A stretch of DNA of 64,000 nt from Planctomycetota bacterium. Its GTDB lineage: Bacteria; Planctomycetota; UBA1135; GCA-002748355. A model generated the notes under the pieces. It saw only the letters and a list, made by a program, of their open reading frames with translations, did no database searches and was not told where the DNA came from. The stretch is taken from contig JALSSW010000070.1 of NCBI GenBank assembly GCA_026984035.1, forward strand, positions 571 through 64,570, written 5' to 3'. A program made the position numbers and the translations under genes. Positions 1 to 62,069 of this stretch are shown here, one piece after another. The number at the start of each line of letters is the position of its first letter. Positions within the stretch are counted from its first letter, which is position 1.

Positions 1-630
1 TAAGTGATGACAGCGTTTTAACAGGTTAAACATGACTGATGCATGGGACTCTTGATACCCTTCAAATGAATCCCTTAAGTCAAAATGTGCATCGATTTGG
101 AGAACGGAAAAGGGGAGCTTTTGTTTCTCAAGGGCTAAAAAAGCTCCCAATGCACAGGAATGGTCACCTCCGAGTATCCCCGGGCGTCCCGTTTTTAGCT
201 TTGAGAAGACCCAATCTCGGACCGCTTCTGTTCGAAGGGAGGAAAGTCCTTCCACAATAGAGTGATGGGTGGAAACCCCCGAGGTGGCCCAGGGGGGGCG
301 CTGAAGGCTGTTGGGGTTCGGAAGAATGGGTGTCCCGGAAGTGGCGGCGCGGGCTTGGGCGGCGAGATGGGGGAGCCATGAGAAGGTTGGCTCTAAGCGA
401 ATACCTTTTTCCCAAATGGGGCCGAAAATAGGATCTTCGAGATCTACTTGAAAGGAGGCATGGAGGATGGCCTCGGGAGCTAAGGCCGTACCTGTTCCGT
501 AGGAACAGGTTGCTTCCCAGGGGACGGGGAGAATGGAAATCAGCGGTTCTTTTAAATCGGGAGGTAAGCCGAAGATTCCGTTGTATTGGGCTTTTCCGTT
601 TGGGTCGAAGTTCTTTTGCAAGCTAGGCAT
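1..630 (-). CDS. Arginase/agmatinase-family ureohydrolase, N-terminal ~210 aa (gene runs off the left edge)
   Basis: Not in the ORF track. I checked plus-strand triplets 1-3 through 628-630 and found no TTA, CTA or TCA, so the minus frame is open from ATG (630..628) to the window edge. The translation is MPSLQKNFDPNGKAQYNGIFGLPP...RPGILGGDHSCALGAFLAL...FSVLQIDAHFDLRDSFEGYQESHASVMFN. It carries the GGDHS and DAH.D metal-ligand motifs of the ureohydrolase family. Confidence 0.8.
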   Translation of the reverse strand, partial: MPSLQKNFDPNGKAQYNGIFGLPPDLKEPLISILPVPWEATCSYGTGTALAPEAILHASFQVDLEDPIFGPIWEKGIRLEPTFSWLPHLAAQARAATSGTPILPNPNSLQRPPWATSGVSTHHSIVEGLSSLRTEAVRDWVFSKLKTGRPGILGGDHSCALGAFLALEKQKLPFSVLQIDAHFDLRDSFEGYQESHASVMFNLLKRCHHL

Positions 631-691
631 GTTTCCAATCTTAGCCTCTGAGATTGTGGGCCCGGAATAAGTGGGCTCTTGTTTTTATGAA

Positions 692-2461: not shown

Positions 2462-2662
2462 AACTTCTTTTTGCTTTGTTTTTATGAAAAAAAGAGTGTT
2501 TTTGGAAACTGTTCGCAGCATGTTACAGTTTGTCCACCCTTCCTCCTCCTCTCTTGGTTTTTTTGGCAACTTTTTTAGACTACATGAATAAGGATTTTTT
2601 CAAACGGGTTTGCTTTTGGAAAGAGTTGGTTTGGGTTCTTCATCTCCGATGAGGTTGGGTGG

Positions 2663-4378
2663 ATGAAACCGGGAGGCACTCATTGGGGTTCAGCGATCGC
2701 TGGCATTCTGTTTGTCCTAGCCGGATGGTTGATCTACCACAACCTTCCCTCCCCAAGATCCTCGCCTAATTCCAGTGCCCCCCCTCCTCTTTCCACATCT
2801 AGGGAAATCAAGGGAGGACAACAAGGTACGGGAGCCCGAAAAAAACGCCCCCCCCTATCCCTCCCTCCTCAGGCTAACCCTGCCCATAAGCCCTTTGAGC
2901 TCTGCCTAAAGGATGCGGTGACCGGCCTGCTCCTAAAGGGGGGCGAAATCTTGGATTTCAGCTCCCAAAAGGTATTGGGTCGAACAGGAAAAGATGGCTG
3001 TCTTTCCCTTAAAGATTTGGATCCAGGCGTTATCCTCATTCATTGTCCTGGCTACTTTTTTTCCCTTATCCCTGAAGATGGACGAAGGATAGGCCGACAA
3101 GGCGGTCGAGTCCTTGTCTCCCTTTTTCCCGCATCCGCTTCCGCCTACGTTGATATCCGAACCGTGTGGCCAAAGGGAATCCCCCAACCCAAGGGGCGCC
3201 TCCGTATCCGGGTGGATCGATATGGTCCACCGAGTGTTGGTGAAAGAAGCTATCCCACGGCCCGTTTCGGTGAAGCCACCCAGGTCTCTCCAGAAGCTCG
3301 CCGTGCTTGGGAAAATCATTCTCTTCTAGCCGACTCAGTTCGGTGTGATGAAAGTTGGTTTCTTGGAGGTTATGGAGGGGTCTCTCTCCCCCCCAGTGGT
3401 GGAAGAATCTACTTTCCTCACCGAGGGAAGTTCCTACTCCGTGCCCGGGATGATAGTGGTAAGTTTTGGGCTCAAGTCACCATCCAGATAAATGGAAGAG
3501 ACCAAGCCCCCATTGTCCTTCATTTCACCAAGGGCCGGGTTCTTTCTTTTTTTATCAAGGACCCCGCTGGTAAACCTGTCCCCAGTGCCAGGGTTCTTCT
3601 CACATTTCCCCGGGAGGTAACAGGGGGACGCTACGAAGATTTAAGTGATGAAAAGGGTTTCGTTCAACTGCAAGGCATTGCAGAAACCCAAGGGGGCCAT
3701 CTCGAGGTTTTTTCCCCCGATTTCAAAGTCAAAAAATTTGAGATGCCTACTTTTCCCAAAAAAAACCTGACCATTCATATGGAGCCCCTTCCCAGCGAGA
3801 GCGTGAGTTTTCTTGTTCAGGAGATAAAGAGCCATAAACCCCTATCCGAAGTTGAGGTTCTTGTGGGAAACCCCGCCCATCCCAATCAAACCAGTAAATC
3901 CGATTCCAGCGGACGTGTTAGGGTCAAATTGATCCGCGGGCAGGTGCGCACTTTTACTTTGCGAAAAAAAGGCTATCTGACTTATGGGGAGCTTCTGGAA
4001 GTAAACCCTGGATTCCCGCTTCCCCGTATTTTTGAAATGGTTCCTGCTGACCCAGAAGCTCAGCGCAAGCTAGGGCTGGTAGCACTCATAAAGGGTACGA
4101 TTTTAAACTCTCGAGGACAGCCCCTCGCTGGAGCTCCTGTTTACTTAGCCGTGAACGGAGAGGGGTTTATTCGTATTCCCAATGCCGTTTCAAGGAGAGT
4201 CATTCGTGGTGCAGTTCCAAAGAGCGTGGTCCAAACCCAGAGTGATTCAAAAGGGAACTTTCTCCTTATCTCAGCCAATACGGGAAAAGCCCGTCTTATA
4301 TGGGGGGGAGAGCCAAGTCAGCAACGTGAATTTGTAGTGAAGCCCGGGCAAGTCTTACATTTCAGGTTGGTTAGATAG
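2663..4378 (+). CDS. Membrane-anchored protein with Pro-rich linker and carboxypeptidase-regulatory-like beta repeats
   Basis: 571-aa ORF with an N-terminal TM helix (AIAGILFVLAGWLIYHNL) and a Pro/Ser-rich linker. Several segments look like CarboxypepD_reg repeats (FFIKDPAGKPVPSARVLL, IKGTILNSRGQPLAGAPVYLAV). The family call comes from remembered motif style only. Confidence 0.5.
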   Translation: MKPGGTHWGSAIAGILFVLAGWLIYHNLPSPRSSPNSSAPPPLSTSREIKGGQQGTGARKKRPPLSLPPQANPAHKPFELCLKDAVTGLLLKGGEILDFSSQKVLGRTGKDGCLSLKDLDPGVILIHCPGYFFSLIPEDGRRIGRQGGRVLVSLFPASASAYVDIRTVWPKGIPQPKGRLRIRVDRYGPPSVGERSYPTARFGEATQVSPEARRAWENHSLLADSVRCDESWFLGGYGGVSLPPSGGRIYFPHRGKFLLRARDDSGKFWAQVTIQINGRDQAPIVLHFTKGRVLSFFIKDPAGKPVPSARVLLTFPREVTGGRYEDLSDEKGFVQLQGIAETQGGHLEVFSPDFKVKKFEMPTFPKKNLTIHMEPLPSESVSFLVQEIKSHKPLSEVEVLVGNPAHPNQTSKSDSSGRVRVKLIRGQVRTFTLRKKGYLTYGELLEVNPGFPLPRIFEMVPADPEAQRKLGLVALIKGTILNSRGQPLAGAPVYLAVNGEGFIRIPNAVSRRVIRGAVPKSVVQTQSDSKGNFLLISANTGKARLIWGGEPSQQREFVVKPGQVLHFRLVR

Positions 4379-4410
4379 ACCTGAAGATTCTTGATCAATA
4401 AAAAAGGTAT

Positions 4411-5106
4411 ATGAAAAATCGTGCGGTTGTTCTTTTCAGTGGGGGGTTGGATTCAACGACTTGTCTTGCTCTTGCGCAGGACCAAGGACGTGAAATCTAT
4501 GCCTTAACCGTCATGTATGGGCAGCGCCATGCTTCAGAGTTAGAGGCTGCCAACCGAATTGCGAAGATCTATTCCCTTCGCGCGCATCGCGTGATTAAGG
4601 TTGATTTGGATCTATTTGGTGGATCAGCATTGACAAGCGAGATCCCCGTCCCCAAGAGGACTTTTTCTACAGAAGGTGAGATCCCTGTAACCTATGTCCC
4701 TGCTCGAAATACGGTTTTTCTTTCGCTCGCTCTTGCTTGGGCAGAAGTTTTGGGTGCCTCCGAAATTTGGATAGGGGTTAACTCTGTTGATTACTCGGGC
4801 TATCCCGACTGTCGTCCAGAGTTTCTAAAGGCTTTTCAGAATCTAGCTCGCCTAGCCACAAAATCCGGTGTCGAGAAAGGGTTATTCCCCAAAATTGTAA
4901 CGCCTCTCCTTGAATGGTCTAAATCACGCATCATTAAAGAGGGCACCAAGCTTGGGGTTCCATACGAGAAGACCTCCACCTGTTATGACCCGGATCCTAA
5001 TGGCTATGCCTGTGGAAGATGTGACGCATGTCATCTTCGTCATCAGGGCTTTCTTGAGGCGGGAATCCCCGATCCAACCAAATACCTTGAACCTCCCTCT
5101 GCATGA
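4411..5106 (+). CDS. queC: 7-cyano-7-deazaguanine synthase QueC
   Basis: AVVLFSGGLDSTTCLA is the PP-loop. The C-terminal zinc cluster is present (CYDPDPNGYACGRCDACHLR). 231 aa. Confidence 0.93.
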   Translation: MKNRAVVLFSGGLDSTTCLALAQDQGREIYALTVMYGQRHASELEAANRIAKIYSLRAHRVIKVDLDLFGGSALTSEIPVPKRTFSTEGEIPVTYVPARNTVFLSLALAWAEVLGASEIWIGVNSVDYSGYPDCRPEFLKAFQNLARLATKSGVEKGLFPKIVTPLLEWSKSRIIKEGTKLGVPYEKTSTCYDPDPNGYACGRCDACHLRHQGFLEAGIPDPTKYLEPPSA

Positions 5107-5270
5107 TGATTTCAGCGGAACCATTTTTCCTTTTCAGATCAGGTCCTGAAACTTTCATCCGTAGCCTTCCAAGGCGCTAAGGCTTGGCCAAAAAAGAACC
5201 AGGTAGAAGTCTCCTGAGCTTTGAACCAATGCAACTCTCCATGATCAAAGGCCAATCAAGGTCGGTCCTT

Positions 5271-6188
5271 TCACACAGAACTGAATCCCCCGAAGTGCAA
5301 ATCGTTAGGAAGTTTCTCCCCGCCTTTGGCAAGAGCGAAGGGCCTGTCTTCGACCTTGGAAATGGGTAAAAAGGGGAAGAGTTCATCGTTGGGAAGCAGG
5401 CAAGCTGTATTTCTTTTTAAAAACTTTGGGAGGTTTCGAAGAAGCCTGGATAAGTCAGGTGTGCTTCCTCCCAGGTCGTGAATCGTCTCGGGGAAATCAA
5501 GTCCTTTTCCCATCGCGGCAAATGCCACAGGTCTCCCTCCAGGGTGGTGGTTCATGAGGACAAAGATACGGGATTGAGGGGTTCTCAAAAAAGCCAGCCA
5601 TTGCTCCCTTGTACGACGGCAAAAAGAACGATTCCCCGCATGTAACAGCTCTAAGCCAGGGATGTCCTCCTCCTTCGCTTCACGAATCAATAAACGGGAG
5701 TCGTCATCATCCGGAAGTCTTCTTTCAATTGGATTTTGGTTTTGGCAAGTGAGGACTACCAGTTTTTCCCGGCCAAATGGCTCAAATCCAAGCTTTCTAT
5801 AAAAACCGGTTTTGTTGGACCAAAGGATAAAGGGAGGTCTTGCGGTTTTTTCGCAAGCACTGATGAGCATCTTCCCCCAACCCTCTCCTCTTCGGTCTGG
5901 ACGGATCCCAACAGAACTGATTAAGGTGACGGAGTAAGGGCGATCCTCAAAGTAAACTTGGGTTGGAAGGATTCCGGCATGTCCCAGCATTCCCTCAGCG
6001 TCTTCAAGAAAAACGTGATGTGCTCCACTATTTTCAAAAACCAGGGGAAGTTCTAATTCCAAGGAGATGGCTTCCTTGGGTCGTAACCAGGAATTGAGGG
6101 TCTTTACCAGAGCTGATTTCTCAGAAGCTGAAAGTTCCTGATTCTGGAGCGTTCCCACACGCACCGCAGGCATTAGGTTGAAAGTCAC
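5271..6188 (-). CDS. GNAT-family N-acetyltransferase, last gene of the flagellar string
   Basis: Acetyl-CoA motif A is present (VGIRPDRRGEGWGKMLISACEK). The start overlaps the stop of the upstream small ORF by 4 nt (6185-6188). Confidence 0.7.
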   Translation of the reverse strand: MTFNLMPAVRVGTLQNQELSASEKSALVKTLNSWLRPKEAISLELELPLVFENSGAHHVFLEDAEGMLGHAGILPTQVYFEDRPYSVTLISSVGIRPDRRGEGWGKMLISACEKTARPPFILWSNKTGFYRKLGFEPFGREKLVVLTCQNQNPIERRLPDDDDSRLLIREAKEEDIPGLELLHAGNRSFCRRTREQWLAFLRTPQSRIFVLMNHHPGGRPVAFAAMGKGLDFPETIHDLGGSTPDLSRLLRNLPKFLKRNTACLLPNDELFPFLPISKVEDRPFALAKGGEKLPNDLHFGGFSSV

Positions 6189-6481
6189 GACTGTTTCCCG
6201 AGAGCTTGGCGGTAGGCATCCTCGAGTTGCCTGCTAAGGTCCATAACAGTCCTATGGGCTTGATCAGCTTTTTCCAGGGCTTTTCCAAATTCCAACAGGG
6301 TTCCTTCTGGGTCTCCATCCCCTTTTCCCGTAAGGCGAATGCGTTGGAGAGATTCCAAAAGATCATCAAACCTGTTAAGCCTCTCGCTTTCTGGGCTCTC
6401 TAGAACCTTTTTTTGATTGGAGACTCCTTGAAGGTCTTGGCTCTTATTTATCTGGTCAAGATGAAGTCTATCGAGATTCAT
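6185..6481 (-). CDS. Small acidic coiled-coil protein, tentatively FliE-like
   Basis: 98 aa, lying 4 nt downstream of flgL. The C-terminus KADQAHRTVMDLSRQLEDAYRQALGKQS aligns by spacing with E. coli FliE [28 protein letters not shown]: KA at the same offset, AY at residues 19-20, and 8 residues after AY in both. Aligned by eye and weak. Confidence 0.4.
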   Translation of the reverse strand: MNLDRLHLDQINKSQDLQGVSNQKKVLESPESERLNRFDDLLESLQRIRLTGKGDGDPEGTLLEFGKALEKADQAHRTVMDLSRQLEDAYRQALGKQS

Positions 6482-6485
6482 TATA

Positions 6486-7904
6486 TTACCTTAAAAAATC
6501 CAATAGGGAGGTTGAAATCACGCGTGCGCCGACTTGGAGAGAGGCTTGATAGGACGTATCCCTTTGTGTCATTTTTAGGATGACTTCAGAGAGATCCACG
6601 TCTTCATCTCGGCTAAGAGCTGCATCCATGGAAAGTTCGAGTCGACCCATGCGATCCTTAGTCGTATCCAGGTTGGCACTCTTGGCCCCTATATTGCGTA
6701 GGCTCTCTAATACCAATTCCCCGACTTTATCGATTTCCCCAATGAGGGCCGTAAGCTGCTTTGCTTGCTCTCCGCCGGAAAGGCCCCCTTTGTTTTGAAG
6801 CAAATCGCGAAGGGCAACAAGGGAGTTGAAAGCATCGTAAGTTCCTTTAAAGCTGATCATCTCCGTTCCCGTCCTAACAATGCTGGTCGCATCCACGGCA
6901 AGGATCTCTCCCTTTGTATCATTTTTGACATGAAGGTTGGTGCTTGAAAAATCTATGTTGGTGTAGGTTCCACCACCGTCCCATGTCATTTTTCCTTCCG
7001 ATGTGAGGGTGCCGGAAACGGATGCTCCTGTGTAGGCGCTCAGATCTAGAAAAACCGAATCCCCGGCGGATGTTTGGATTTGTAAATCCGTACTCGTATT
7101 GTCAAAGGTAACTGGAGTTCCGCCCCCGACAGAAATCGTATTGGGAGGACCCATGGAGATGGTGTATGCAAGGTTTCCCAGAGCCGTGGTTTCCGAACTC
7201 CCAGCAGAAATCCCAGTGGGGAGGTTGCTAAAACCTGTCTGGCTAATGCGCAAAAAAGCTTGGCCACGTCCTGAACTTGCCCCTGTTCCGGCCTTTACTC
7301 CGGTATTTCCCGTGAACTGGATCCCAGACCGATTGGCCTTCATGAAGAGTTGGTCCCCCGGTGTATGAACTTCTACCTCTAACCCCGGAGCGATGGAGAG
7401 GGATACCCCTTGGTTGGCTCCGTTGTATTTGACAAAAGTAGCTTTTTCATTGTCCGTGAGAGTGAAGGCTTGGGTGGATGTTTTGGCGCCACTAAAGAGG
7501 TATCGATCCCCCAGCTTGGAATTCGCGATCCCAACCATTTGCTTCAGAAGCTGGTTCACCTGTGAAGCAAGAGTGTCTCTATCCGTCTGGCTTAGTGTTC
7601 CATTGGCCCCTTGAACCGCGATCTTGCGGGCTTCGGACATAATGTCAGCGGCATCCTGAAACCCGGAGGATGCCGTGTTAAGGATATCTCGGGAGAGGAC
7701 CGCGTTTTGCTGGAAACGCTTTACGCTTTCAATATCATTCCGAAGAGGAAGGATTCGCAAAAAAGCCGCCGGATCGTCCGAAGGACGATTAAGCTCTTTT
7801 CCGGTACTCAATTTTTCTCGGTATTCATTAAGGCTTATTGCATTTCGAGAAATGTCTCTAAGAGCATTATTGAGGAGAATGTTTTGGGTGATTCGAAGAA
7901 CCAT
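6486..7904 (-). CDS. flgL: Flagellar hook-associated protein 3 FlgL
   Basis: Flagellin-type N-terminus (RITQNILLNNALRDISRNAISLNEYREKLSTGKELNRPSDDPAA) and C-terminus. It directly follows flgK with a 2-nt gap. Confidence 0.9.
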   Translation of the reverse strand: MVLRITQNILLNNALRDISRNAISLNEYREKLSTGKELNRPSDDPAAFLRILPLRNDIESVKRFQQNAVLSRDILNTASSGFQDAADIMSEARKIAVQGANGTLSQTDRDTLASQVNQLLKQMVGIANSKLGDRYLFSGAKTSTQAFTLTDNEKATFVKYNGANQGVSLSIAPGLEVEVHTPGDQLFMKANRSGIQFTGNTGVKAGTGASSGRGQAFLRISQTGFSNLPTGISAGSSETTALGNLAYTISMGPPNTISVGGGTPVTFDNTSTDLQIQTSAGDSVFLDLSAYTGASVSGTLTSEGKMTWDGGGTYTNIDFSSTNLHVKNDTKGEILAVDATSIVRTGTEMISFKGTYDAFNSLVALRDLLQNKGGLSGGEQAKQLTALIGEIDKVGELVLESLRNIGAKSANLDTTKDRMGRLELSMDAALSRDEDVDLSEVILKMTQRDTSYQASLQVGARVISTSLLDFLR

Positions 7905-7906
7905 GG

Positions 7907-10267
7907 TTATCTCCCTAGCTGAATTAAGGATTCAGTCATCTGGCTAACGATATTGATGAAGCGAGAGCTTGCCTGGAAAGCCTGTTGAAATCGCACAAGA
8001 TCCACCATCTCTTCGTCGATGTTCACTCCAGAAATGGAATCGCGTTGGTTTTTCAAAAATCCAAGAAGCGTATCCTGGCTTTTTAGGAGTTCTCTTGCCT
8101 TCTTTGTTTCGAAGCCAACGTCAGAAGCAATATCTGCATAGAAGTTCTCAATGCTTCCCCCGCCCAGGTCCTCGTAGTTTTCAGTCCGGAGATTGGCCAG
8201 AAGGGCTAAATTCTGGCTGTCTCCGGCGGCTTGTGTAAAGCCTGCCGCAATCAAGTCGGGGTCCCCTTCAAGCCTTTTTGAGACTCCGATATCGCTGGCC
8301 GTGGATCCCGTAAAGAATATATTGAGACCTAATCCAACAAGAGCGTCCGATGTATCAGGATCCTTTAGAGTATCCAGTGCAAGTTGATCTCCATTGGTTT
8401 TACTAATGGTTCCGGGACCGAAAGCGATCTCTACTCCATTCCCAACTTCGAGTTTGTCCCCGAAACTGTAGTTAGATCCGACATCAAGGCTTGCAATCTT
8501 TGTCCCTTCCTTGTCGTAGACGGCAATTTTCAAACCATCTGTGACTCCAATATCTCCATCACCCTCGGGGACAAAACGATAAAAGCCATTGTCATTTCCT
8601 GTAAACGTTCCTGAGATGCTAACAGCTACGGTGTCACTCTTTCCATTGACGGTGGTCCCCGTCAGGAGTCCCAAGGTTGCGAGGGGGTTATTGGTGCCAT
8701 CGGTGAGTTGAAGAGAGCTTGTTGTTCCTGTAGAGGTTGCTTTTAAGCTGATATTGTTTCCCACAACAAGGACGGTTGCGCTCAAGCTTGCAGCACTGAG
8801 TTTTGAGTTCAGGACAGTTGCCAGCTCTTTAGGGGTAACTGAAGAAGGTGTCTTAAAATCACTTGCTGTGAGACTGATTGTCGTGTTTGTTCCTCCATCG
8901 ACCGAGATTTGAAAATCGGAAGGAAGGGAGGACATATCAAATGGGCCTGATGATGTGCTTCCAATCGTTGCATGCTGACTTCCAAATGTTTTTGCGCTGT
9001 TTGGATTTGAGTCGAGTCTTTTGCTGAAATCAAAGCCGAAACCTGAGTCTGAAAGGATGCGTAATCTTCCTGTGGGATCAACAGAAGCATTAAGGTGAGC
9101 TACTTTGCTTATTTCACTCGCTAGATCCCCAAGGGTCATGGAATTCGGATCAATGGAAATCTTTGTTCGTTCCAAATCTCCGCTGTCTAAATCAGAGACT
9201 GAGATGTAAAGGTCTCCCTTTGTAACGTCGAAAGGGAACTCTCCGAAGGCCAGGAGTTCATCCGAAAATTGTTTATCCCCATCACCATCCTTGATGGGAT
9301 TCTCAGCAAGAAGAGATGTGAAAGGTCCAGATTTGGGCATTCCTGTCGAATGAATCCTGTTGGTCTCCAATGCAATTTTGTGTGCGAGGGAATCAAGGCG
9401 GGAAGTTATTTCGGGAAGGCTGTTTCTTTCAGATTCAAGCAATGCTGCGATCCGCCCTTCCTGGGGGGTTATCTTTGAAGTTGTGTTTCCAATAAAAATT
9501 TGAGTTTGATCATTGCTATCTTTTGCTGCCCGTAAAGTTGAAGCCGATCCACCGCTTACCAGGAGGTAGCCCCCGGCTAAAATGTCGAGAGATCCATTTT
9601 TTCGCTCCACCGCTTGTGTTTCCATTAAGGCGGAAAGCCCTTGGATGGCATTTTCTCGACGGTCACGCAACTCATTTGCCGAGTTTCCATTGGATTCCAG
9701 GGTTGTGATTTGTGTGTTTAGATTTGCGATTTCCTTTGAGAAGGCATTGACTTCCTTCAAATATCCCTGAACTTCATTGATCGTGTCATTTTTTAATGTG
9801 TTGAATCGATCGGCCAAAAGGTTGAACCCACCGGTTAGATTCTTTGAAGCCTGGAGAACGCCCCCTCGGAGGGATCGGCTTCCCGCGTCGCTCCGCAGCT
9901 TATCCACTTGAGTAAAGAACCCATTCAGTAAGCCGGAGAGTCCCCCATTTCCGGGTTCTCCAAAGACTCCTTCGATTTCAGAGAGCCGTCGAAATTCGGT
10001 ATCCGCTCTCCCAAAGATCCCATTCTGAGTTCGAACTCGCGCCTCTAAACGTCCGTCCAACACTCTTTGAATAGAGTCGATCTGGACGCCTGTTCCCAAA
10101 TGCATTCCTGTTTGCAGGGTGATCGGAAATGTTGTTCCAAGGAGGACCCGTTGACGGGTGTAACCGGGAGTGTTGGCATTGGAGACATTTTGTCCAATGA
10201 CCTGCATTGCAAAGCGAGCCGCATTGAGCCCTCGAAGACCCGTTCCTAATCCCATTCCAAATCCCAT
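7907..10267 (-). CDS. flgK: Flagellar hook-associated protein 1 FlgK (786 aa, enlarged)
   Basis: N-terminal rod/hook signature (GLNAARFAMQVIGQNVSNANTPGYTRQRV). C-terminal VNIDEEMVDLVRFQQAFQASSRFI. Confidence 0.93.
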   Translation of the reverse strand: MGFGMGLGTGLRGLNAARFAMQVIGQNVSNANTPGYTRQRVLLGTTFPITLQTGMHLGTGVQIDSIQRVLDGRLEARVRTQNGIFGRADTEFRRLSEIEGVFGEPGNGGLSGLLNGFFTQVDKLRSDAGSRSLRGGVLQASKNLTGGFNLLADRFNTLKNDTINEVQGYLKEVNAFSKEIANLNTQITTLESNGNSANELRDRRENAIQGLSALMETQAVERKNGSLDILAGGYLLVSGGSASTLRAAKDSNDQTQIFIGNTTSKITPQEGRIAALLESERNSLPEITSRLDSLAHKIALETNRIHSTGMPKSGPFTSLLAENPIKDGDGDKQFSDELLAFGEFPFDVTKGDLYISVSDLDSGDLERTKISIDPNSMTLGDLASEISKVAHLNASVDPTGRLRILSDSGFGFDFSKRLDSNPNSAKTFGSQHATIGSTSSGPFDMSSLPSDFQISVDGGTNTTISLTASDFKTPSSVTPKELATVLNSKLSAASLSATVLVVGNNISLKATSTGTTSSLQLTDGTNNPLATLGLLTGTTVNGKSDTVAVSISGTFTGNDNGFYRFVPEGDGDIGVTDGLKIAVYDKEGTKIASLDVGSNYSFGDKLEVGNGVEIAFGPGTISKTNGDQLALDTLKDPDTSDALVGLGLNIFFTGSTASDIGVSKRLEGDPDLIAAGFTQAAGDSQNLALLANLRTENYEDLGGGSIENFYADIASDVGFETKKARELLKSQDTLLGFLKNQRDSISGVNIDEEMVDLVRFQQAFQASSRFINIVSQMTESLIQLGR

Positions 10268-10279
10268 GATTTCCTCCGA

Positions 10280-10798: not shown

Positions 10799-11207
10799 GA
10801 TCCATCCCCTTGAGGGTAGAATCATTGAGGAGCCCTTTTTGAGTTAAAGAATCCTCGGTTGAAAGGTTGATGGGGGTCGGTTGTGCAAGAGTCTTTTGGG
10901 GGATCAATCTTTGGCGTTCCCAATCTTCCATGAGTGCTTTTGCAAGGCCAATCCTTCCCGATTGAGCCATTTTGTCAGAGAGCAAGCGGTTGAAAAGTTG
11001 ACTTTGGACACCTGACCCTGGGGCTTTTCCAAACATTCCATCCCCCAGGGAATCCGCACTTTTCCTCATATCCCGAATAAGCATTCCCACAAAGATTCCT
11101 TCGAAACGCTTTGCCGCATTCCAAGCTTTTTCTCTGGAAGGAAGATTGTTTAATGTATTGTTTGCCCTTCCCTTTGGTGACTTTGTTTGTGTTGATGGAA
11201 TTATCAT
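10791..11207 (-). CDS. flgJ: Rod-binding protein (FlgJ N-terminal domain only, no muramidase domain)
   Basis: AAKRFEGIFVGMLIRDMRKS...SQLFNRLLSDKMAQSGRIGLAKAL matches the Rod_binding motif. 138 aa. Confidence 0.8.
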   Translation of the reverse strand: MIIPSTQTKSPKGRANNTLNNLPSREKAWNAAKRFEGIFVGMLIRDMRKSADSLGDGMFGKAPGSGVQSQLFNRLLSDKMAQSGRIGLAKALMEDWERQRLIPQKTLAQPTPINLSTEDSLTQKGLLNDSTLKGMDHE

Positions 11208-51591: not shown

Positions 51592-51618
51592 CGCGAGAAA
51601 AAGGGTTGGCGCTCAAGT

Positions 51619-52896: not shown

Positions 52897-52899
52897 GTT

Positions 52900-54540
52900 T
52901 TACTCACTCGTGGAAGTTGTTCGTGAAGCCCCCGTGCCGAGAGCCTCTAAGAGGCTGGGGAGATCGGGGGATTCTAAAACCCGGTCGGGTTCGTGCCCCA
53001 TTTCCCGTAGAGCTTTCGCTGTGGTGGGGCCGATCGCAAGTACTTTGCCTGAAACCTGTTGGGGCGGGAGTAAGCGAGCCGCTTTGGGCGACAAATAAAG
53101 GGTGTCCCCCATTGGCTCGGGGGATGAGGGAGTGGGTTGGATGCGGTAGAGAGGGAGCTGGAGGACTTTGAGTCCAGCCTTTGAGGCGGTTTCAAAGCTT
53201 GCAGGGTTTCCTTCTTGGGCACCGAAGATGGCGATGTCTTGATAACCTTTCTCGATTGCGAGAAGAGCCATTCCATGGCCGTTTTTCTCGTCGGCCTCGA
53301 GGACCTTTAGGTTGGGGAAGAGGGATTCCGCATGGAGGCGGGAAGCTGGGCCGGGAACAATGACCGAAGGATGGGTGTCCCTCTTGGCTTGGGCGAGAGC
53401 GTTGTGGAGGTGGGGAGCGGCTTGGTCGAGGGCATTGTGGCTTGAAAAGAGGAGGGCATCCATTTCCGCGCATTGGGTCCATGTTTCTCGAGGAACCTGA
53501 AGTGGAACGATGTCATAGACCCTGTGCTGATGGATGGCCGCGCCTGCGGCCAAGATGTGGTCGGCGAGCAGGGACCGGCCGCCCCCTCCTATTAGGTGTA
53601 GAACCCTGTCTTTTAATGGTTTATCAAGAGCTGGGGCCAGGGCCTTGCTGGCTTCCTGGATCAAGGAATGGGTGTCCCCTTTGATCAGAACCAGTGAGAT
53701 ACCGGGGGCTTGGTCGTCCCGACCATAGGCAAAGGCATCGAGACGGTAAGCTCCGTTGGGTTCTATTGTGGCGAGGGTCCCAAGGGGAAGGCTGCATCCG
53801 CCGCCGAGGGCTTGGAGGATGCCTCGTTCAATGTCTGTGAGGGTTCGGGTCTTCGGATCCTCGAGTTTTTTGAGGATCTCGAGAGTTTGGCTGTCCCCCT
53901 CACGGGCTTCGAGGCCGAGAGCTCCTTGGCCTGGGGCGCCGGGAAAGAGGCGGGGAGAGAGGTCAAAGGCGATGAGGTCCCGCGTCTCGAGCCCGAGCCG
54001 TTCCAGGCCTGCCTGGGCGATGAGGATCGCGTCGTAGTGTCCTTCCTGCAATTTCCTGACACGAGTAGGGACATTGCCTCGAAGGTCGAGGATTTGGAGA
54101 TCGGGGCGAAGATCGAGAAGGCGCCGGCGGCGGCGGAGAGAGCTTGTTCCAACCTTGGCTCCGTCATTAAGGGGAAGCTCGCCGCAGGCTGCTCTCTTTT
54201 TATGGAACGCTCCTTTCCGAAGGAGGAGACGCTCTCCGACTGGGCCGCGGGCTGGGACGGCTGCGAGGACCAGTCCCGGTGCCAAGGTGACGGCGAGATC
54301 TTTTAGGCTGTGAACCGCAAGGTCGAATCGGTTTTCCAGGAGTCCCTCTTCGATTTCTTTCGTGAAGAAGCCCTTGCCCAGCTCGGGAGTGAGAGGGATG
54401 TCCTGGATCCTGTCTCCGCTGGTCTTGACGATAACGATTTCACAGCGAATCCCTGCCAAGGCTTCGAGTTTGCCGGAGATATGCTTGGCCTGCCAGAGTG
54501 CAAGGTCGCTTCCACGAGTTCCAATGCGCAACGTTTTCAT
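52900..54540 (-). CDS. hemC: Fused porphobilinogen deaminase / uroporphyrinogen-III synthase (HemC-HemD)
   Basis: The N-terminal ~300 aa begin MKTLRIGTRGSDLALWQAKHI and include LGGGCSLPLG (HemC). The C-terminal ~240 aa form a HemD-like two-lobe domain. 546 aa in total. Confidence 0.85.
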   Translation of the reverse strand: MKTLRIGTRGSDLALWQAKHISGKLEALAGIRCEIVIVKTSGDRIQDIPLTPELGKGFFTKEIEEGLLENRFDLAVHSLKDLAVTLAPGLVLAAVPARGPVGERLLLRKGAFHKKRAACGELPLNDGAKVGTSSLRRRRRLLDLRPDLQILDLRGNVPTRVRKLQEGHYDAILIAQAGLERLGLETRDLIAFDLSPRLFPGAPGQGALGLEAREGDSQTLEILKKLEDPKTRTLTDIERGILQALGGGCSLPLGTLATIEPNGAYRLDAFAYGRDDQAPGISLVLIKGDTHSLIQEASKALAPALDKPLKDRVLHLIGGGGRSLLADHILAAGAAIHQHRVYDIVPLQVPRETWTQCAEMDALLFSSHNALDQAAPHLHNALAQAKRDTHPSVIVPGPASRLHAESLFPNLKVLEADEKNGHGMALLAIEKGYQDIAIFGAQEGNPASFETASKAGLKVLQLPLYRIQPTPSSPEPMGDTLYLSPKAARLLPPQQVSGKVLAIGPTTAKALREMGHEPDRVLESPDLPSLLEALGTGASRTTSTSE

Positions 54541-54613
54541 GAAAACTCCACGGGACCTGCCCTGAGAGAAAAAGAGAAGGATGAGTGTAGCAGCGGATCC
54601 TCGACATTTCAGG

Positions 54614-55828
54614 CTACGCAGTTACAGGCAAAAGTCGGGTTTTTAAATCTTTGAGATGCAAGTGTGCGTGTGCCTTGGCCATTCTCAGGAATGCGTCCTC
54701 GAGGTGAGATTTGTGAACTTCGCTCAGTTCTTCGAGCTGGAAGATGCGTTCGATCTCTTCTTTGGCGAGCCGGAGATGTTCTTGGCGGATGTGATCCAAA
54801 CCGAAGGCTTTGGCCTTTTGCCGATGGATAAAGCGTGTGATCCCTCGCTCCAAAATCGGTGTTGCCTCTTCGGCTAATGCTTGGCGTTCTTCGAGGTTTG
54901 CATCACTGATTTCTCGAAGTTGGTCCATGTCGAGGAGTGTTATTCCTTCGATCTGCGTGCAGCTTTTGGCGATATTGGGAGGGGATCCAAGGTCGGTAAG
55001 GACAATTGGGTGTTGTTGGCTGAGGACTTTTGCGCAGGTCGGATCGATGATCGGCTCCGTGGCGCTGACTGCCGTGAGAATGGCGTCAAAGCTGTGTCGG
55101 CCTTTGAGAACATCCGTGAGCGATAGGGTCGTTCCTCCATGATCATCGGCGAGATCCTGGGCTTTCGCGGCGGTGCGATTCACAAAGAAAAGTTCGCAGG
55201 GACTTCCCCTCAGGAATGCATCGGCGGCTTTCTTGGCCATGATTCCTGCTCCGACAATGGCGATGCGGGGGTTCTTGATTCCCTGTTTGTTGAGGAGGTT
55301 TCTTGTGGCTGTGACTCCAACGGAGGCAACGGAAACTGCTTGGGTTCCGAGCCCGGTCTTTCGACGGATTTCTTTGGCTGTTCTGAGGGCGGCTTGAAAC
55401 ACTTCCTCAAGAAGGGGGGTTATGTCCTTGCGCTCCCTGGACGTTTGAACCGCCAGGCGAACTTGACCGGAGATTTGGTTTTCGCCGACAACCATAGATT
55501 CAATCGAACTCGCGACTCGGAAGAGGTGCCTGGCGGCTTGGATTCCTTGGAGTTGTTGACCGGGAACTTTAGAGAAGGCCTGAAGTAGAGATGCGGGGAT
55601 GTGTGGGGTTCCCTGTTCGAGTTCGAGATAGATTTCTCTCCGGTTACAGGTGCACAGGAGAACAAAGCCTTTGATCCACCCCTGCGCCTTCTCCTGAATC
55701 AGGACCTGGAGCAGTTCCTCAGGGCTTCCGACCTCCCCGATTCTACTGGGGGGGGTAAAGCGGTGGCTCGTTCCAATGAGATGGAGATTCTTCACTCTTG
55801 CCTCCGGTTGTCCAACAGAGCTAGGCAT
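54614..55828 (-). CDS. hemA: Glutamyl-tRNA reductase
   Basis: LLCTCNRREIYL active-site Cys motif. IAIVGAGIMAKKAA NADPH fold. An in-frame GTG at 55795 lies 5 nt after GGAGG and may be the true start. Confidence 0.93.
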   Translation of the reverse strand: MPSSVGQPEARVKNLHLIGTSHRFTPPSRIGEVGSPEELLQVLIQEKAQGWIKGFVLLCTCNRREIYLELEQGTPHIPASLLQAFSKVPGQQLQGIQAARHLFRVASSIESMVVGENQISGQVRLAVQTSRERKDITPLLEEVFQAALRTAKEIRRKTGLGTQAVSVASVGVTATRNLLNKQGIKNPRIAIVGAGIMAKKAADAFLRGSPCELFFVNRTAAKAQDLADDHGGTTLSLTDVLKGRHSFDAILTAVSATEPIIDPTCAKVLSQQHPIVLTDLGSPPNIAKSCTQIEGITLLDMDQLREISDANLEERQALAEEATPILERGITRFIHRQKAKAFGLDHIRQEHLRLAKEEIERIFQLEELSEVHKSHLEDAFLRMAKAHAHLHLKDLKTRLLPVTA

Positions 55829-56124
55829 TATCGAGTGGAGTTTCCTCGCATTGTCAGCCCAGTGTCATGGGGGGACTTTTTCCTCTTCTGCGACAAATTG
55901 CGCCATAACTGGGGATTGGCTTGGGAGTTCGGAGCCTAGCGGGGTTCTTCTCTCCACCGGGAACCCCCATGCCTTCGAAAAAAACAGCCCAATGGCAAGC
56001 TTTGGGGACTGCTTGGAAGGTTTCCTTGCCAGGGTTTGCTATACTTCTCCTCTTCCAAAACAAGGATTCTTCCTGCCTTCCTTTTAGACATCTTGACCGT
56101 TTTCTTCTTTTCTTCCGGACTCGA

Positions 56125-57341: not shown

Positions 57342-60300
57342 TTAACCCCTCCGGATCGAACATTCGAGGATGTGAACGGGGGCTTTACTCCCTTTTCGTT
57401 CAAGAATGAGAAAGCCTGTTTGCTTGCGAAGGGGGCTAAGATTGATTCGGAAAAGTGGGATTGGATCTCCCTTCTTTGCGAGTGGGGTCCATGGGATTAG
57501 GACTTTTCGTTTAGCCCCATCTGTGGAGCGAAAGAGGACGCGGAAAAGGGGCCTGGGGGCGGAGGTTCTATTGTTCGGAATGGCTGCGCGAACCCGGAGA
57601 ATTCCGCCCTCGGGGGGAATGGATACTGGGAGGGGGATGGCAGCTTGATTGGATTGGTTCTTTGGAAAGAGGAGGGTTGGGGAATGAAAGCTTCCATCTG
57701 AAAACGGAACCGCAAAGCTGTTTCGGTAGAGGTTCCTTGGTGTGACATTGCGAGCTTGGAAAATGCTGTCGAAAAGGGGGAAGGTTCGGGCTTGATCAAG
57801 GACAAATGAGTGTTTTCCCTCCTGAAGGGTTTCAATTTCGATCCTGAATCTCCGGGACTGATCGTGGGGGGGCAGGGTGAGGAGGAGACGAACAAGGCCA
57901 GGAGCGATCCTCCCTTCGAAAACTTGCTTTCCTTCGACAATCACACGCATTTTGGAAAGGCAGGTGACCTCGCCTTGGAGAAAGAGACGCTGCTCTTTGG
58001 GCCCGAGAAGTGTCGGACCTTTTAGGAGAAGGATCCCCCCTCTTTTGTTAGGGAGTCGGGAGTCCCCAGCGGGAACCGCATGAAAAAGCCTGCTCTCGGG
58101 TTCACGAAGAAATCGAGGGAATTTTTTTGGCGATAGGTCAGTTCCCATGAACTTCAATGCAAAGATTTGGGTCCCGTCCTCATCGAAAGATTTGGGTTGG
58201 ATGTTCCAAATTTCCTCACCATCCAAGGTGTGGATGGAATAACCGAGGGTATCGGCTGTGCTTGCAGGGTCCCGCTCTCGAGTGGGAGTGGAGTGGATCA
58301 AGGATAGAAAGGATGGGTGTCCCGTTTTGTCCATCTGCTTGGGAGCGATCCGGGTATCCCGGATAGCAATGAGTTCGCCCTGTGCGAGCCGGGGTGGGAG
58401 GAGAAGTGAGGGGCCTCGAGCTTCAATGAAGACCCTTTCCCGGGCAGGAAGAGGGATTGGAAGTTCCAGGAGGAACCCCCCTTGGGAAAGGGGGGGGAGA
58501 CGGATTTCTGGGAGAGAATGAGCAGGAGCAAGATAGACTGTCCCAAAACCTGCTTCATGGAGGCTGAGGCCGGCGGGATTCGTAGGACGTCCAGGGGGAG
58601 CCGGGCTTCGGCCTGGGAACCTTGGCCCAAAAGCCGCGAGCCCTTGATCTCCTGCGGGAAGACCGGACCAGAATTGGAGCAGAAGGGAGGCAGGGAGGCC
58701 CAGTGAAATACCGTTTTTTGCCAGAGGGAAAAGAAAAAGGGCCGGGGCTTTTTTTCCCTGGAAGAAGGGGGCTAATAGAGCGACTTCGCTTGGGGGGAGC
58801 CAAGTGGATTGGAAAACATGTTTTTTTCCCGCTCGAATGGGGAGAAAAAGGAGATTGGGGCTTGGGATTTGTGAGAGTCTGTTTCGATGAAGGCGAAGGG
58901 CGGCCCTGGCGATTTGGCGTATGTTCAGGTTTTTTTCAGGAGGGAGACTTCTCCATGGAAGGACTTGGCCCGAGAGGTTGATTTTGGATTGGGTAATTTT
59001 CGCGATCCAAGCGTGGAGGCTTGATGAGGATTCGGGTCCGAAAAAAGAGAGGGAGAGTTCCTCGCTTGTGGGTGAAAACCCCCCACCCAGCGAGATGGGT
59101 ATTATAAGCGCCTGGGCTTGAGAGGGAGCGGGTTTTGGAGGGGAAACCTTCTTCTCAAATTGGGAGATAGGGCTTCCATTACCTTCGTGAGAATATCGCA
59201 GTTGCAGAAGAGCACTAGCAGGTTTGAGGCCTCGGATTTGAAGAGAAAGCCCCTCTCCTTTTCCCCAGTCTTCTCGATCAAAGAGGGTGAAGGTTTTGTC
59301 GACATAGGGGAATCCCTCTGAAACGGCGATCCGGCGGGTCCAATGCTTACCTGCTTTGATCTGGATGTTTCCTTGGATACGAAGTTGGAGGCGCAGACGC
59401 AGAGCACTTGCCGGAATCGGCAGCTGAAAGGAAATCCCCGATGCAGTCCCTAAGGGGACACCCATACCCATCCCATGAGAAAGGGGCACCCTATCCATGG
59501 CCAGCCCCAGTCGGTGGAGAGCCCCAGCTTCATTGAAATCAAAGAAAAAAGAGTCTCCCAAAATGGTGAGTGCCCCATGGTTTTCGGGGGAGGTGATTTC
59601 GCGGCCGTTAATGATGGCGTGGACCTGTGTAAGCAGGGTTTTACTTTGAGGCAGGAAAGCTTGGGGGATCCTGGTTGATAAGAGGACATTGTTCCCTTGG
59701 ATCTGAATGGCCAGGGGGAGCATGGCCATAGGGCCAATCGCCGGGCCAAAACTCAGCCAGGCTTTGCTTGGGGGTGCGCTTACATCCAGAATTGTGGCCG
59801 AGACAGGAAGGTCAAAACGTCGGTCAACCTCTTGGGCTGGCTCATAGGACAGAATCTCAAGAGCGCGTGGCCGAATCTGAATTTTGGCATGTTCCCCCTG
59901 CTCTTGGATTTTCCCCCCTTGGAGGAGCCAGCTTCTTTTTGAAGGGTCCTCCCCGACAAAACTTCCCCACTGCTCCGCTGAATGGTCGCCCCGGATCGAA
60001 GGGGCTGCTCGAATTACAGCTCGTCGCGCCCCCTCTTTCGGGTTGGAAAAAAGGGACAGCCCATAATTTTCGGTAGCGCACCAAGCTTGCCCGGTTCGAT
60101 CCAAGATGAGGCTCCCATGCGTTTGTTCGATTTTTTCGAGATCCCGGAGGAGTTGGGGTGAGAGTTGTAACCCCTTAGATCCAGGTATTTGTGAAGGCCC
60201 CGGCTTGCGGGTGAGCAGGAAGCGGATCGCGGCTCTTGCCCGAGACAGAGCGGTAGGAAGCTGAAGGGTTTCCGCCGCATCAATGAGGATGGAACCTACT

Positions 60301-62069
60301 TCCCCAAAGTCATTGTTGATGTCTAGGGCGAGGTTGGATTGGAGGAAAGCTCCCCTGCTTCGATCTAAAAGGGATGGGGTTGCAGCGCTGATTTGGAGCT
60401 TGGACAGCTCGAGAAGCCAGATGCGTGCGTTTGCTGAAAATGAATGTCCTTCTTTGGTTTTTGCAAGGCCAAGAGAGAGGGCGAGAGCATCCAGTGCTGT
60501 TTGTGAACGGAGGGGGGAAGGAAAAGACTGAGGTGCAAGGAAGCGGAGCTTGGGGTCGGGGATGGGGGGGGTGCGGTGCCGGGATTCGAAGGCCTTCATC
60601 AGAGATGCAGCCGCCTTAACTGCTTTGGAGTTCTCCTTTTTCCCGTAGGCGAGGAGGAAACGGCCGCAAGCGAGAGTCCCGGCAGCATCCTCAATAAAGG
60701 CGTTTCGAATGGGGCTTAGATCTTCCCTGAAAAAACTGGCAATGGAGCCCCTTGGGGTTTGATTCTCCATGAGAAAACGAGCAAGTCTCTCGCATAAGGC
60801 CCTTACTTCTCTGGCCTGCTCTGCCTGAAGGAGGGGTAAGATGCTCCACAGGATCAGTCCCACCCGGGAACAAGCCTCTGTGGAGAAGGGTTCCTTGTCC
60901 CTAAGGAGCCAATTCTCACTTTTTTTGGGATTCCCCGAAAAGTGGGTCCGAAAGAGACCACCCTTCTTCGGGACCCAACGGAGGAGAGATAGGGTGTCCC
61001 CTATTCGCTGCCAGGCGAGGGCTTGTTGCGCTTGGTTTAGGGGGGAGCCCTTGGAATTCTTGCGGAGGGTCTCCAACAGGTGGGCAGCTATCATTAATGG
61101 ACCTTGGGGGGCAGTCAGGTCGTGAATAAGCGAAGTCCCTTTTTGCCAACCTTTTACCTGATGATCAAGCCGATGGAGGAGGCCGATGGTTGTTTCAGTG
61201 CGGAGGCTTCTCCAGCTTTTTCCCAATAAACCCAGGCCGGTTTTTTTTTGTCCTTCTTTCCAAATCGTGGAAAGAAGGGGCTGGAAGGCTTCCTCCGGGG
61301 CCGAATCTGGGAAGAAGTGGAGCTGGCCTTGGACCTCGAGGTCTTCTTCTCTCAGAGGAAAGGTTCTTTCGGGAGTTTCAATGACCTGCCCGGAAAGGAC
61401 ACCCGTTTGACCGAAGCCAAACTCAAGCAAAACCCCTTTCTTTTTTTCCGAGGAGAGGACCAAGGGAAGTCGACGTTTTTCTCGAAGATTTCCTATCTTG
61501 GGAGTGAGGGCCAGGGATCCCCTTTGATCCCCCAGGAGGAGGAATGGGGCGGCGAAGGCTTTTTCAGGGAAGAGGTTGCCATCAGTGGAGGGAAAGGTTT
61601 GCTCAATCCGAGGAAGGGGGCCACTTCGGATCCAACGAAAGAGGAGTGTGATACGGCTTGCTTTGGTTTGAATCCCGATTTCGTCCCGAAAGCGAAAGGA
61701 GAGGATGGGGTGCTTGCTTCCTTTCCCTTGGGCTTTGCGGTCGAAATGAAGGATAAATCGATGTTCGCGAGGGATCTCGCCTTCGAAAAAAAGGCTTTTT
61801 TTGTCCAGTTTCTGGGCTCGGAGGGGGATCAATGTTTCCCGGACGCTTCCATCCGAGAGGACTTGGTGCAAGCGGACTCCTTCGAATCGGAGAAGAGGGA
61901 TTTGGGCCTTCGTTTTGGAGGAAGGGGAAGCTTCCTCCTTCATGTGGATCTCCCAACCATCCTTGGTCCAGGTCCAGCCCAGATTTTGTGAGGGAACCTG
62001 GGTTTGAATCCTCGCCCCTGTGAAGAAGAGAGAGAAGAAAATGAAGAGCTTGTGTCCGAAGGCATTCAT
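57342..62069 (-). CDS. Giant secreted protein (about 1575 aa) of unknown function
   Basis: Uninterrupted 1598-aa ORF trimmed to ATG 62069 (MNAFGHKLFIFFSLFFTGARIQTQ signal peptide). I found no HExxH, CGEQ thioester or other catalytic signature. One helical stretch (ACSRVGLILWSILPLLQAEQAREVRALCERLARFLMENQTPRGS) looks like an alpha/alpha-toroid repeat. Confidence 0.7.
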   Translation of the reverse strand: MNAFGHKLFIFFSLFFTGARIQTQVPSQNLGWTWTKDGWEIHMKEEASPSSKTKAQIPLLRFEGVRLHQVLSDGSVRETLIPLRAQKLDKKSLFFEGEIPREHRFILHFDRKAQGKGSKHPILSFRFRDEIGIQTKASRITLLFRWIRSGPLPRIEQTFPSTDGNLFPEKAFAAPFLLLGDQRGSLALTPKIGNLREKRRLPLVLSSEKKKGVLLEFGFGQTGVLSGQVIETPERTFPLREEDLEVQGQLHFFPDSAPEEAFQPLLSTIWKEGQKKTGLGLLGKSWRSLRTETTIGLLHRLDHQVKGWQKGTSLIHDLTAPQGPLMIAAHLLETLRKNSKGSPLNQAQQALAWQRIGDTLSLLRWVPKKGGLFRTHFSGNPKKSENWLLRDKEPFSTEACSRVGLILWSILPLLQAEQAREVRALCERLARFLMENQTPRGSIASFFREDLSPIRNAFIEDAAGTLACGRFLLAYGKKENSKAVKAAASLMKAFESRHRTPPIPDPKLRFLAPQSFPSPLRSQTALDALALSLGLAKTKEGHSFSANARIWLLELSKLQISAATPSLLDRSRGAFLQSNLALDINNDFGEVGSILIDAAETLQLPTALSRARAAIRFLLTRKPGPSQIPGSKGLQLSPQLLRDLEKIEQTHGSLILDRTGQAWCATENYGLSLFSNPKEGARRAVIRAAPSIRGDHSAEQWGSFVGEDPSKRSWLLQGGKIQEQGEHAKIQIRPRALEILSYEPAQEVDRRFDLPVSATILDVSAPPSKAWLSFGPAIGPMAMLPLAIQIQGNNVLLSTRIPQAFLPQSKTLLTQVHAIINGREITSPENHGALTILGDSFFFDFNEAGALHRLGLAMDRVPLSHGMGMGVPLGTASGISFQLPIPASALRLRLQLRIQGNIQIKAGKHWTRRIAVSEGFPYVDKTFTLFDREDWGKGEGLSLQIRGLKPASALLQLRYSHEGNGSPISQFEKKVSPPKPAPSQAQALIIPISLGGGFSPTSEELSLSFFGPESSSSLHAWIAKITQSKINLSGQVLPWRSLPPEKNLNIRQIARAALRLHRNRLSQIPSPNLLFLPIRAGKKHVFQSTWLPPSEVALLAPFFQGKKAPALFLFPLAKNGISLGLPASLLLQFWSGLPAGDQGLAAFGPRFPGRSPAPPGRPTNPAGLSLHEAGFGTVYLAPAHSLPEIRLPPLSQGGFLLELPIPLPARERVFIEARGPSLLLPPRLAQGELIAIRDTRIAPKQMDKTGHPSFLSLIHSTPTRERDPASTADTLGYSIHTLDGEEIWNIQPKSFDEDGTQIFALKFMGTDLSPKKFPRFLREPESRLFHAVPAGDSRLPNKRGGILLLKGPTLLGPKEQRLFLQGEVTCLSKMRVIVEGKQVFEGRIAPGLVRLLLTLPPHDQSRRFRIEIETLQEGKHSFVLDQARTFPLFDSIFQARNVTPRNLYRNSFAVPFSDGSFHSPTLLFPKNQSNQAAIPLPVSIPPEGGILRVRAAIPNNRTSAPRPLFRVLFRSTDGAKRKVLIPWTPLAKKGDPIPLFRINLSPLRKQTGFLILERKGSKAPVHILECSIRRG

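Follow-up and report, generated by a model that had tools for sequence, protein, structure and literature searches.

The DNA analysed here (the window) is a 64-kb stretch of contig JALSSW010000070.1 from a Planctomycetota bacterium, and carries a flagellar gene cluster at approximately 6–32 kb, pepN, a heme-biosynthesis cluster at 44.9–55.9 kb with a two-component system inside it, and an open reading frame (ORF) of 1598 amino acids. The best named matches of the window proteins are from Planctomycetota metagenome-assembled genomes (MAGs), and the window is 99.9% identical to a contig from an ENA metagenome (L081). Written through these genes is a 9-base word, GGGACACCC, of which 21 exact copies were found when both strands were searched. 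The plus strand reads the reverse complement, GGGTGTCCC, at 17 of these sites and GGGACACCC at the other four (22063, 44056, 45741 and 59455), and ten of the 21 copies extend to the 11-mer GGGACACCCAT. An earlier note on this DNA had reported the same numbers of 9-mers and 11-mers, and only one of its positions required correction (22062 to 22063).

Twenty of the copies are genic and 17 of these are sense relative to their host gene, decoded as G-T-P in eight cases, x-D-T in six and G-H-P in three, with three copies antisense. In the first half of the window, minus-strand sense copies are present in an arginase/agmatinase-type ORF running off the window start (328–336, G-T-P), a His_Phos_1 (SixA-like) gene (2240–2248, G-T-P), a fliK-like gene (19067–19075, G-D-T-L), flhF (26156–26164, G-T-P) and flhA (26492–26500, G-H-P), and a plus-strand antisense copy is present in a flagellar sigma-factor gene (22063–22071). 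The single intergenic copy (32235–32243, minus strand) lies in the divergent region between fliO and pepN, where its flanks permit a 7-bp stem, CAAAGGG/CCCTTTG. The plus-strand gene galK contains a plus-strand sense copy (44056–44064, G-H-P). The heme-biosynthesis cluster (44901–55900) is the densest region with ten copies. Within it, hemY carries three minus-strand sense copies (45136–45144, R-D-T-L; 45905–45913 and 46163–46171, both G-T-P) and one plus-strand antisense copy (45741–45749, A-G-V-P), whilst minus-strand sense copies occur once each in hemH (46621–46629, in a conserved H-G-T-P motif), hemN (48310–48318, in a conserved G-G-G-T-P motif) and hemL (52798–52806, G-T-P) and three times in hemCD (53100–53108, G-D-T-L, adjoining an indel-rich segment; 53373–53381, R-D-T-H; and 53670–53678, G-D-T-H). 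The 1598-residue ORF contains minus-strand sense copies at 58315–58323 (G-H-P) and 60992–61000 (G-D-T-L) and a plus-strand antisense copy at 59455–59463 (G-V-P). These gene contexts and decodings match those described previously.

The number of copies is far above that expected from the composition or coding content of the window. Dinucleotide-preserving shuffles of the window gave a mean of 0.60 copies and a maximum of three, compared with the 21 observed, and Markov models of orders 1–4 predicted 0.47–1.09 copies of GGGTGTCCC and 0.17–0.27 of GGGACACCC, corresponding to an overall enrichment of approximately 30–35-fold. When synonymous codons were shuffled within the ORFs modelled, the expected number of sense copies was 1.19 (16 observed) and that of antisense copies 0.17 (three observed). 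Neither the Markov nor the codon-shuffled null, run on the 64-kb window, generated comparable counts, and the excess described in the earlier note stands against both. A total of eight copies was present in 1.44 Mb of sequence from 80 unrelated bacterial loci, which were the output of a genome-collection scan with FlhA in which the best relative was 58% identical. Variants with one mismatch were barely enriched (26 observed versus approximately 20 expected), and the excess therefore concerns the exact word. The central ACA/TGT is fixed in 21 of 21 copies and the word is not a palindrome, with its GGG/CCC arms conferring a partial two-fold symmetry. Weaker, A/T-rich preferences surround the nine invariant bases, the extended form being A-W-R-G-GGGACACCC-W-T-t-n-t-T with a purine-rich 5' flank and a T-rich 3' flank, and are alike for sense and antisense copies once both are read in the orientation of the word. 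Since three reading frames are used, the enrichment extends to antisense and intergenic copies and the excess survives the synonymous-shuffle null, GGGACACCC is a DNA-level word and not a peptide motif, in agreement with the original proposal.

Close relatives of the window were retrieved via HemN, a porin and FlgE, and the gene calls used for them were those of the retrieval tools. Two loci (L084 and L208) belong to one JGI contig, Ga0438755_411801, which has a HemN of 86% amino acid identity and contains 20 copies of the word in 36 kb. GCA_054038375.1 contains 10 copies in 13.7 kb (L085) and five in a further locus of 22 kb (L216), and GCA_011321845.1 contains nine copies in 22 kb (L212), the same sequence also being present in an ENA hydrothermal-vent metagenome (L213). 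Among 9-mers the word ranks first in L084, in L085 and in L208, and it does so in four related genomes assembled independently (the window, the JGI contig, GCA_054038375.1 and GCA_011321845.1), which span a local GC content of 0.50 to 0.64. It was seen in independent NCBI, JGI, ENA and Logan assemblies. A more distant relative, L086, with a HemN of 66% identity, has a single copy in 21 kb compared with this abundance in close relatives, indicating that the word is a trait of a narrow clade.

The window is 73–75% identical at the DNA level to L084 or L085. In a three-way alignment the word was intact at 7 of 11 window sites in L084 and at 6 of 10 in L085, against conservation of 6–15% for all or GC-matched 9-mers (binomial P = 9e-7 and 1.5e-3 for the word). 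The copies at 45136, 46163, 46621, 53100, 53373 and 53670 are conserved in both relatives, those at 44056 and 45741 in L084 and that at 48310 in L085. Blastn-block coordinate offsets, as distinct from residue-level alignment, place counterparts of all four flagellar-region copies in L216 and of three (19067, 22063 and 26492) in L212. Turnover occurs by point substitution. The copy at 48310 is replaced by GGAACACCC in L084, and three copies are exact in the window only, namely 58315, 45905 (where relatives have AGGACACCC) and 52798 (where relatives have GGAACCCCC or GGCACCCCC). The converse is seen at 58352–58360 on the minus strand, where the window has a decayed copy, GGGATACCC, and both L084 and L085 have the exact word at the same place.

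The word has also left a mark on the encoded proteins. Positions at which it is synonymously allowed carry it in 16 of 28 sense and three of nine antisense cases in the window, and proportions in the relatives are similar. Peptides able to encode the word in a sense frame number 14.9 per 10,000 amino acids compared with 3.6 in unrelated proteomes, a four-fold difference, and antisense-encodable peptides are likewise enriched in the relatives. At eight of the ten heme-cluster sites the residues are unlike those of the outgroup L086, where the word is lacking. HemL has G-G-T-P (outgroup G-G-E-P) at 52798 and HemY has L-G-T-P (outgroup L-R-T-P) at 45905, and the outgroup residues at 45136 and 45741 are LESF and A-C-V-P, respectively. 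The only pre-existing motifs at the heme sites are the GGGTP of HemN and the HGTP of HemH. These alignments show that the word has been maintained across species and that protein sequences have changed to fit it.

One segment of the window stands apart. A 4.2-kb insertion at 35028–39209 has no counterpart in L084, has a low GC content (0.435) and contains no copy of the word, and looks like recently acquired DNA. Its freedom from the word agrees with the reported absence of uptake sequences from genes without homologues in relatives (PMC2817400). The insertion holds two ORFs without Pfam hits (35943–36947 and 37227–38870) as well as (CCCATTC)x4.6, a perfect tandem repeat spanning 35503–35534; in L084 pepN instead abuts an SSF transporter gene.

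The earlier note had described the word as oriented, and whilst its count of 17 sense copies among 20 was correct, this description does not amount to evidence for polarity. A third-order Markov model applied per strand predicts 0.60 and 0.17 copies, a near-equal enrichment of 28-fold and 23-fold in the two orientations, and when proteins are held fixed the enrichment is 13-fold for sense and 17-fold for antisense copies. The plus strand is G- and T-rich regardless of gene orientation (GC skew +0.10 in plus-strand and +0.09 in minus-strand genes), and codon preferences favour the sense frames by an estimated 2.5–3 fold as judged from the codon table. Given equal enrichment in both orientations, background asymmetry of this kind alone predicts the 17:4 strand bias and the 17:3 sense bias, and the 17:4 bias carries no information on polarity. 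An origin of the sense bias purely in peptide availability holds only in part, as peptides compatible with sense copies are nearly as frequent in unrelated proteomes as those compatible with antisense copies (3.6 versus 4.4 per 10,000 amino acids); this near-equal supply means that part of the sense excess is the imprint of the word on proteins. The bias is weaker in relatives, with sense:antisense ratios of 11:6 in L084/L208 and 4:5 in L212, and strand ratios of 3:3 in the new territory of L208 and 6:3 in L212. Five loci pooled gave 45 sense and 16 antisense copies, and minority-strand genes pooled gave three sense and four antisense. The latter numbers are too small for strand and transcript to be told apart, and no strict rule is visible. 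Known uptake sequences are also biased in frame and orientation within genes (PMC2346458, PMC2817400). The equal-enrichment test provides a general caution that strand and codon asymmetry can fully explain an apparently oriented word. With regard to the strands themselves, GC skew on the plus strand is positive and AT skew negative in genes of either orientation, which makes this strand leading-strand-like, whereas 74% of the coding sequence, with the flagellar and heme operons among it, lies on the minus strand; most window genes would be head-on to replication if the skew reflects replication.

These data support the description of GGGACACCC as a lineage-specific, hyper-abundant, non-polar double-stranded DNA recognition word that is maintained by drive or selection. 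The mechanism is more tentative. By analogy with known systems the likeliest is of the uptake-sequence type, a choice we hold with some reserve, in which a putative sequence-specific DNA-binding protein of an uptake or homologous-replacement pathway would prefer word-bearing fragments. Alleles bearing the word would then be over-transmitted (molecular drive), point substitutions creating the exact word would spread and be retained even where the encoded protein changes, and existing copies would be preserved, so that genome and proteome of the clade alike would bear the mark of the word. Both the reader protein and the process are postulated, and the observations from which they are drawn are abundance, exactness, equal enrichment in two orientations, conservation between species, amino acid replacement and absence from the inserted island. 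Among the roles listed in the earlier note, the best fit is with a DNA-uptake-type tag or a protein-binding site, and a Chi/KOPS-like polar signal or an mRNA element fits poorly.

The analogy is with the DNA uptake sequence (DUS) of Neisseria, ATGCCGTCTGAA, and the uptake signal sequence (USS) of Pasteurellaceae, AAAGTGCGGT. Each has an exact core that is short and non-palindromic and is flanked by weaker A/T-rich preferences, and the window word likewise is over-represented in both orientations, shared at orthologous sites within its lineage and imprinted on the proteome. DUS and USS further resemble it in their very large excess in their own genomes, in being mostly intragenic with frame and orientation biases, in inflating the frequency of the peptides that they can encode, in lying at residues of low conservation, and in being conserved among related species, lineage-specific and missing from recently inserted DNA (PMC2817400, PMC2346458). 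For uptake sequences, encodable tripeptides are roughly doubled and located at poorly conserved residues (PMC2817400). Unlike DUS and USS, the word belongs to a phylum without known competence, is approximately three-fold less dense, is strongly patchy and has no inverted pairs at gene ends, and an uptake bias is proposed for it by analogy. Its commoner orientation is sense and not antisense, although the USS of A. pleuropneumoniae is also mostly in the coding orientation.

Several observations weigh against an uptake-type mechanism. One is the distribution of the word. Uptake sequences have been described as rather evenly spread, and an even spread over the core genome was not observed. The 15.7-kb stretch at 2601–18300, made up mostly of flagellar structural genes, with queC and its neighbours, contains no copy compared with 5.4 predicted at a uniform 34-fold enrichment, and none of its five sense and four antisense synonymous-compatible positions is used. 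By contrast the heme cluster has ten copies against 3.8 predicted at uniform enrichment, and nine of its ten sense-compatible positions are occupied, the exception being 55604 in hemA. Local composition does not explain this patchiness. The stretch orthologous to 2601–18300 is also poor in the relatives, with no copies in L216 and two in L212. Similarly, contigs DROQ01000114.1 (L209) and JBPLCZ010000109.1 (L210), though assigned to word-bearing MAGs, have one copy each in 17 kb and use one of 11 sense-compatible positions. These are orthologous accessory regions, 72–82% identical to each other, with molybdopterin oxidoreductase and xanthine-dehydrogenase-type genes and a porin paralogue, and either the contigs are mis-binned or the process is uneven along the chromosome. 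Further points on the same side are the density of the word, 0.33 per kb and below the approximately 1 per kb of DUS and USS, and the lack of clear enrichment of one-mismatch copies, some of which a balance of drive and mutation should leave. The clade sample is approximately 190 kb, much of it syntenic. No competence genes (ComP-type minor pilin, ComEC, DprA or PilQ) were found in this part of the MAGs, and no report of an iterated word or of competence in Planctomycetes was found in the literature searched.

The patchiness resembles more closely, again by analogy, that of the cyanobacterial highly iterated palindrome HIP1, GCGATCGC, whose spread is periodic on a 10–90 kb scale (PMC5861425). 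A HIP1-like word under direct selection, at which an abundant chromosomal protein would bind or modify the DNA (for nucleoid organisation, or as an orphan methyltransferase) and which would be unrelated to uptake, is accordingly a serious competitor, though one we consider rather unlikely to be correct. HIP1 is enriched 15- to 300-fold (PMC5861425), a range that includes the value seen here, and like the window word it is intragenic in all frames, conserved in position between genomes and unevenly or periodically spread, with an unsettled function (PMC5861425, PMC4390886). Conservation of sites far beyond that of other 9-mers, as found for GGGACACCC, is the same argument used by Xu et al. for maintenance of HIP1 rather than chance (PMC5861425). 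Word-poor flagellar structural genes and the L209/L210 regions persist at orthologous places across species, the patchiness being on a 10–20 kb scale, and the GGG/CCC arms provide the word with a partial two-fold symmetry. HIP1, however, is a perfect palindrome recognised by orphan methyltransferases, whereas GGGACACCC is no palindrome, has an asymmetric ACA/TGT centre fixed in every copy and has no known methyltransferase. No methyltransferase or candidate binding protein was found within the approximately 190 kb of clade sequence. The two readings may also not be truly distinct, as the function of HIP1 is unsettled and two preprints link it to transformation or gene transfer (10.1101/2024.09.10.611283, 10.64898/2026.06.24.733823).

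A by-product of biased repair or mutation, for example very-short-patch-type repair tied to DNA modification that turns near-matches into a functionless word, would produce a non-polar excess of the exact word alone, as observed. It would also be consistent with the gains at 45905, 48310 and 52798, which compared with relatives are single substitutions from near-matches. Such a process should act genome-wide, however, and 2601–18300 and L209/L210 are nearly empty despite long residence and the availability of compatible positions. The effect of very-short-patch repair in E. coli is much weaker than an approximately 35-fold excess, and an excess of this size accompanied by amino acid replacement makes this origin improbable.

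A polar chromosome signal, either a Chi-like hotspot or a KOPS-like (FtsK-orienting polar) sequence with one orientation relative to replication, would explain why the plus strand, which by skew looks leading, reads GGGTGTCCC at 17 of 21 sites, and four of the seven copies in the pooled minority-strand genes follow strand and not transcript. The E. coli Chi GCTGGTGG and the KOPS and SRS sequences GGGNAGGG and GAGAAGGG are comparable as over-represented oligomers whose commoner orientation is on a G-rich, leading-like strand. Unlike these, GGGACACCC is not G-rich, alters proteins and has no skew beyond background, as its 28-fold and 23-fold enrichments over the per-strand Markov model and the ratios in the new L208 territory and in L212 indicate. 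The excess is about ten times larger than that of Chi or KOPS, and its size and the protein imprint go far beyond either. In the clade sequence reached (approximately 190 kb), no genes for RecBCD/AddAB or for an FtsK gamma-domain reader were found. A signal of this type is quite unlikely.

An mRNA-level element, such as a small hairpin (GGG-ACA-CCC) or a site for an RNA-binding protein or RNase, especially in heme-operon transcripts, could be suggested by the 17:3 sense bias in the window, the ten copies in one operon-like cluster and the purine-rich 5' and T-rich 3' flanks. It is very improbable given that antisense copies are equally enriched (17-fold), are conserved at 45741 (in L084) and 22063 (in L212 and L216) and outnumber sense copies in L212. 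An extended hairpin stem was rejected as not site-specific, flank pairing having a mean of 0.96 compared with 0.75 for swapped downstream flanks (P = 0.07), and the window contained no Rfam matches. An origin in chance, in a peptide motif, in codon usage or in faulty assembly is already refuted. Two copies do coincide with the broadly conserved G-T-P motifs of HemN and HemH, but each null falls short by more than ten-fold and the word occurs in three frames, both orientations and independent assemblies.

Repeats of the repetitive extragenic palindromic (REP)/bacterial interspersed mosaic element (BIME) type and the miniature inverted-repeat transposable element (MITE) type are similar in being short sequences with palindromic arms that are dispersed in many copies. 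They differ in that copies of GGGACACCC have only nine bases and weak flanks in common, form in-frame parts of conserved genes, originate by point substitution and lack an extended stem. The copies are not insertions of a longer element, as they align base for base with orthologues lacking the word. Repeat elements built on TAGGGGACACCCCTA were observed in three unrelated metagenome contigs (L199, L172 and L123), where a dispersed repeat of approximately 30 bases, TAGGGGACACCCCTAAAACCCCGGCAGGAG, has the same core as the loop and stem of a perfect small palindrome, AGGGG-ACA-CCCCT. This is probably a REP/MITE-like element of other organisms and not homologous to the window. A metagenome scan for two copies 264–294 bases apart gave, among the matches listed, tandem and unrelated repeats and none homologous to the window.

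Some features of the surrounding genes were also noted. FlgE (15657–17618, minus strand) has 94% protein identity to its counterparts in L212 and L216, where DNA identity is approximately 73–75%, compared with 86% for HemN; protein constraint on the flagellar structural genes is thus unusually strong, and the same region is word-poor. The 1598-residue ORF (57342–62138, minus strand), with word copies in both orientations, has no Pfam domain and corresponds to products of 1385–1583 amino acids in L084/L208, L085 and L086, four Gly-Cys-Pro tripeptides being present in L084, L085 and L208 pooled. The two-component system, a histidine kinase and an OmpR-type response regulator (49712–51591, minus strand), is located between hemL and hemE and is kept in L084, L085 and the more distant L086. 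In L086 (12515–15781) the HemY-type protoporphyrinogen oxidase is part of a 1088-residue product, more than twice the size of the 444-residue HemY of the window. Lineage-specific words were also considered elsewhere. In L086 (GC 0.70) the palindromes TCGGCGCCGA and ACGGCGCCGT, as well as GGATCCGCGA, are over-represented far more weakly than GGGACACCC, in a small sample; as candidates, TCGGCGCCGA and GGATCCGCGA in L086 and GCCAAGGCC in L209/L210 were set aside, being only modestly over-represented in approximately 20 kb each.

To our knowledge hyper-abundant genomic words are uncommon, and good characterisation is limited to those of Neisseriaceae and Pasteurellaceae, as uptake sequences, and of cyanobacteria, as HIP1. 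The class of word is thus known, its occurrence in Planctomycetota is new, and its form here is non-palindromic and patchy. It is possible, though we would not presume it, that the word-bearing clade has the first self-recognition signal for sequence-specific DNA uptake outside the Proteobacteria, or else a new non-palindromic class of chromosome-organising word. The strength of the word and its retention over 25% DNA divergence point to an unrecognised sequence-specific DNA transaction, for which uptake, recombination, modification and chromosome organisation are candidates, in a phylum whose genetics are poorly known. The word is usable as a tag for binning contigs of the clade and for spotting foreign DNA. 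Should the uptake-type mechanism be correct, members of this uncultured Planctomycetota clade, one sample of which comes from a hydrothermal vent, would undergo natural transformation through a dedicated DNA receptor, the patchiness would mark those parts of the chromosome taking part in exchange, and the signal could help to make these organisms transformable.

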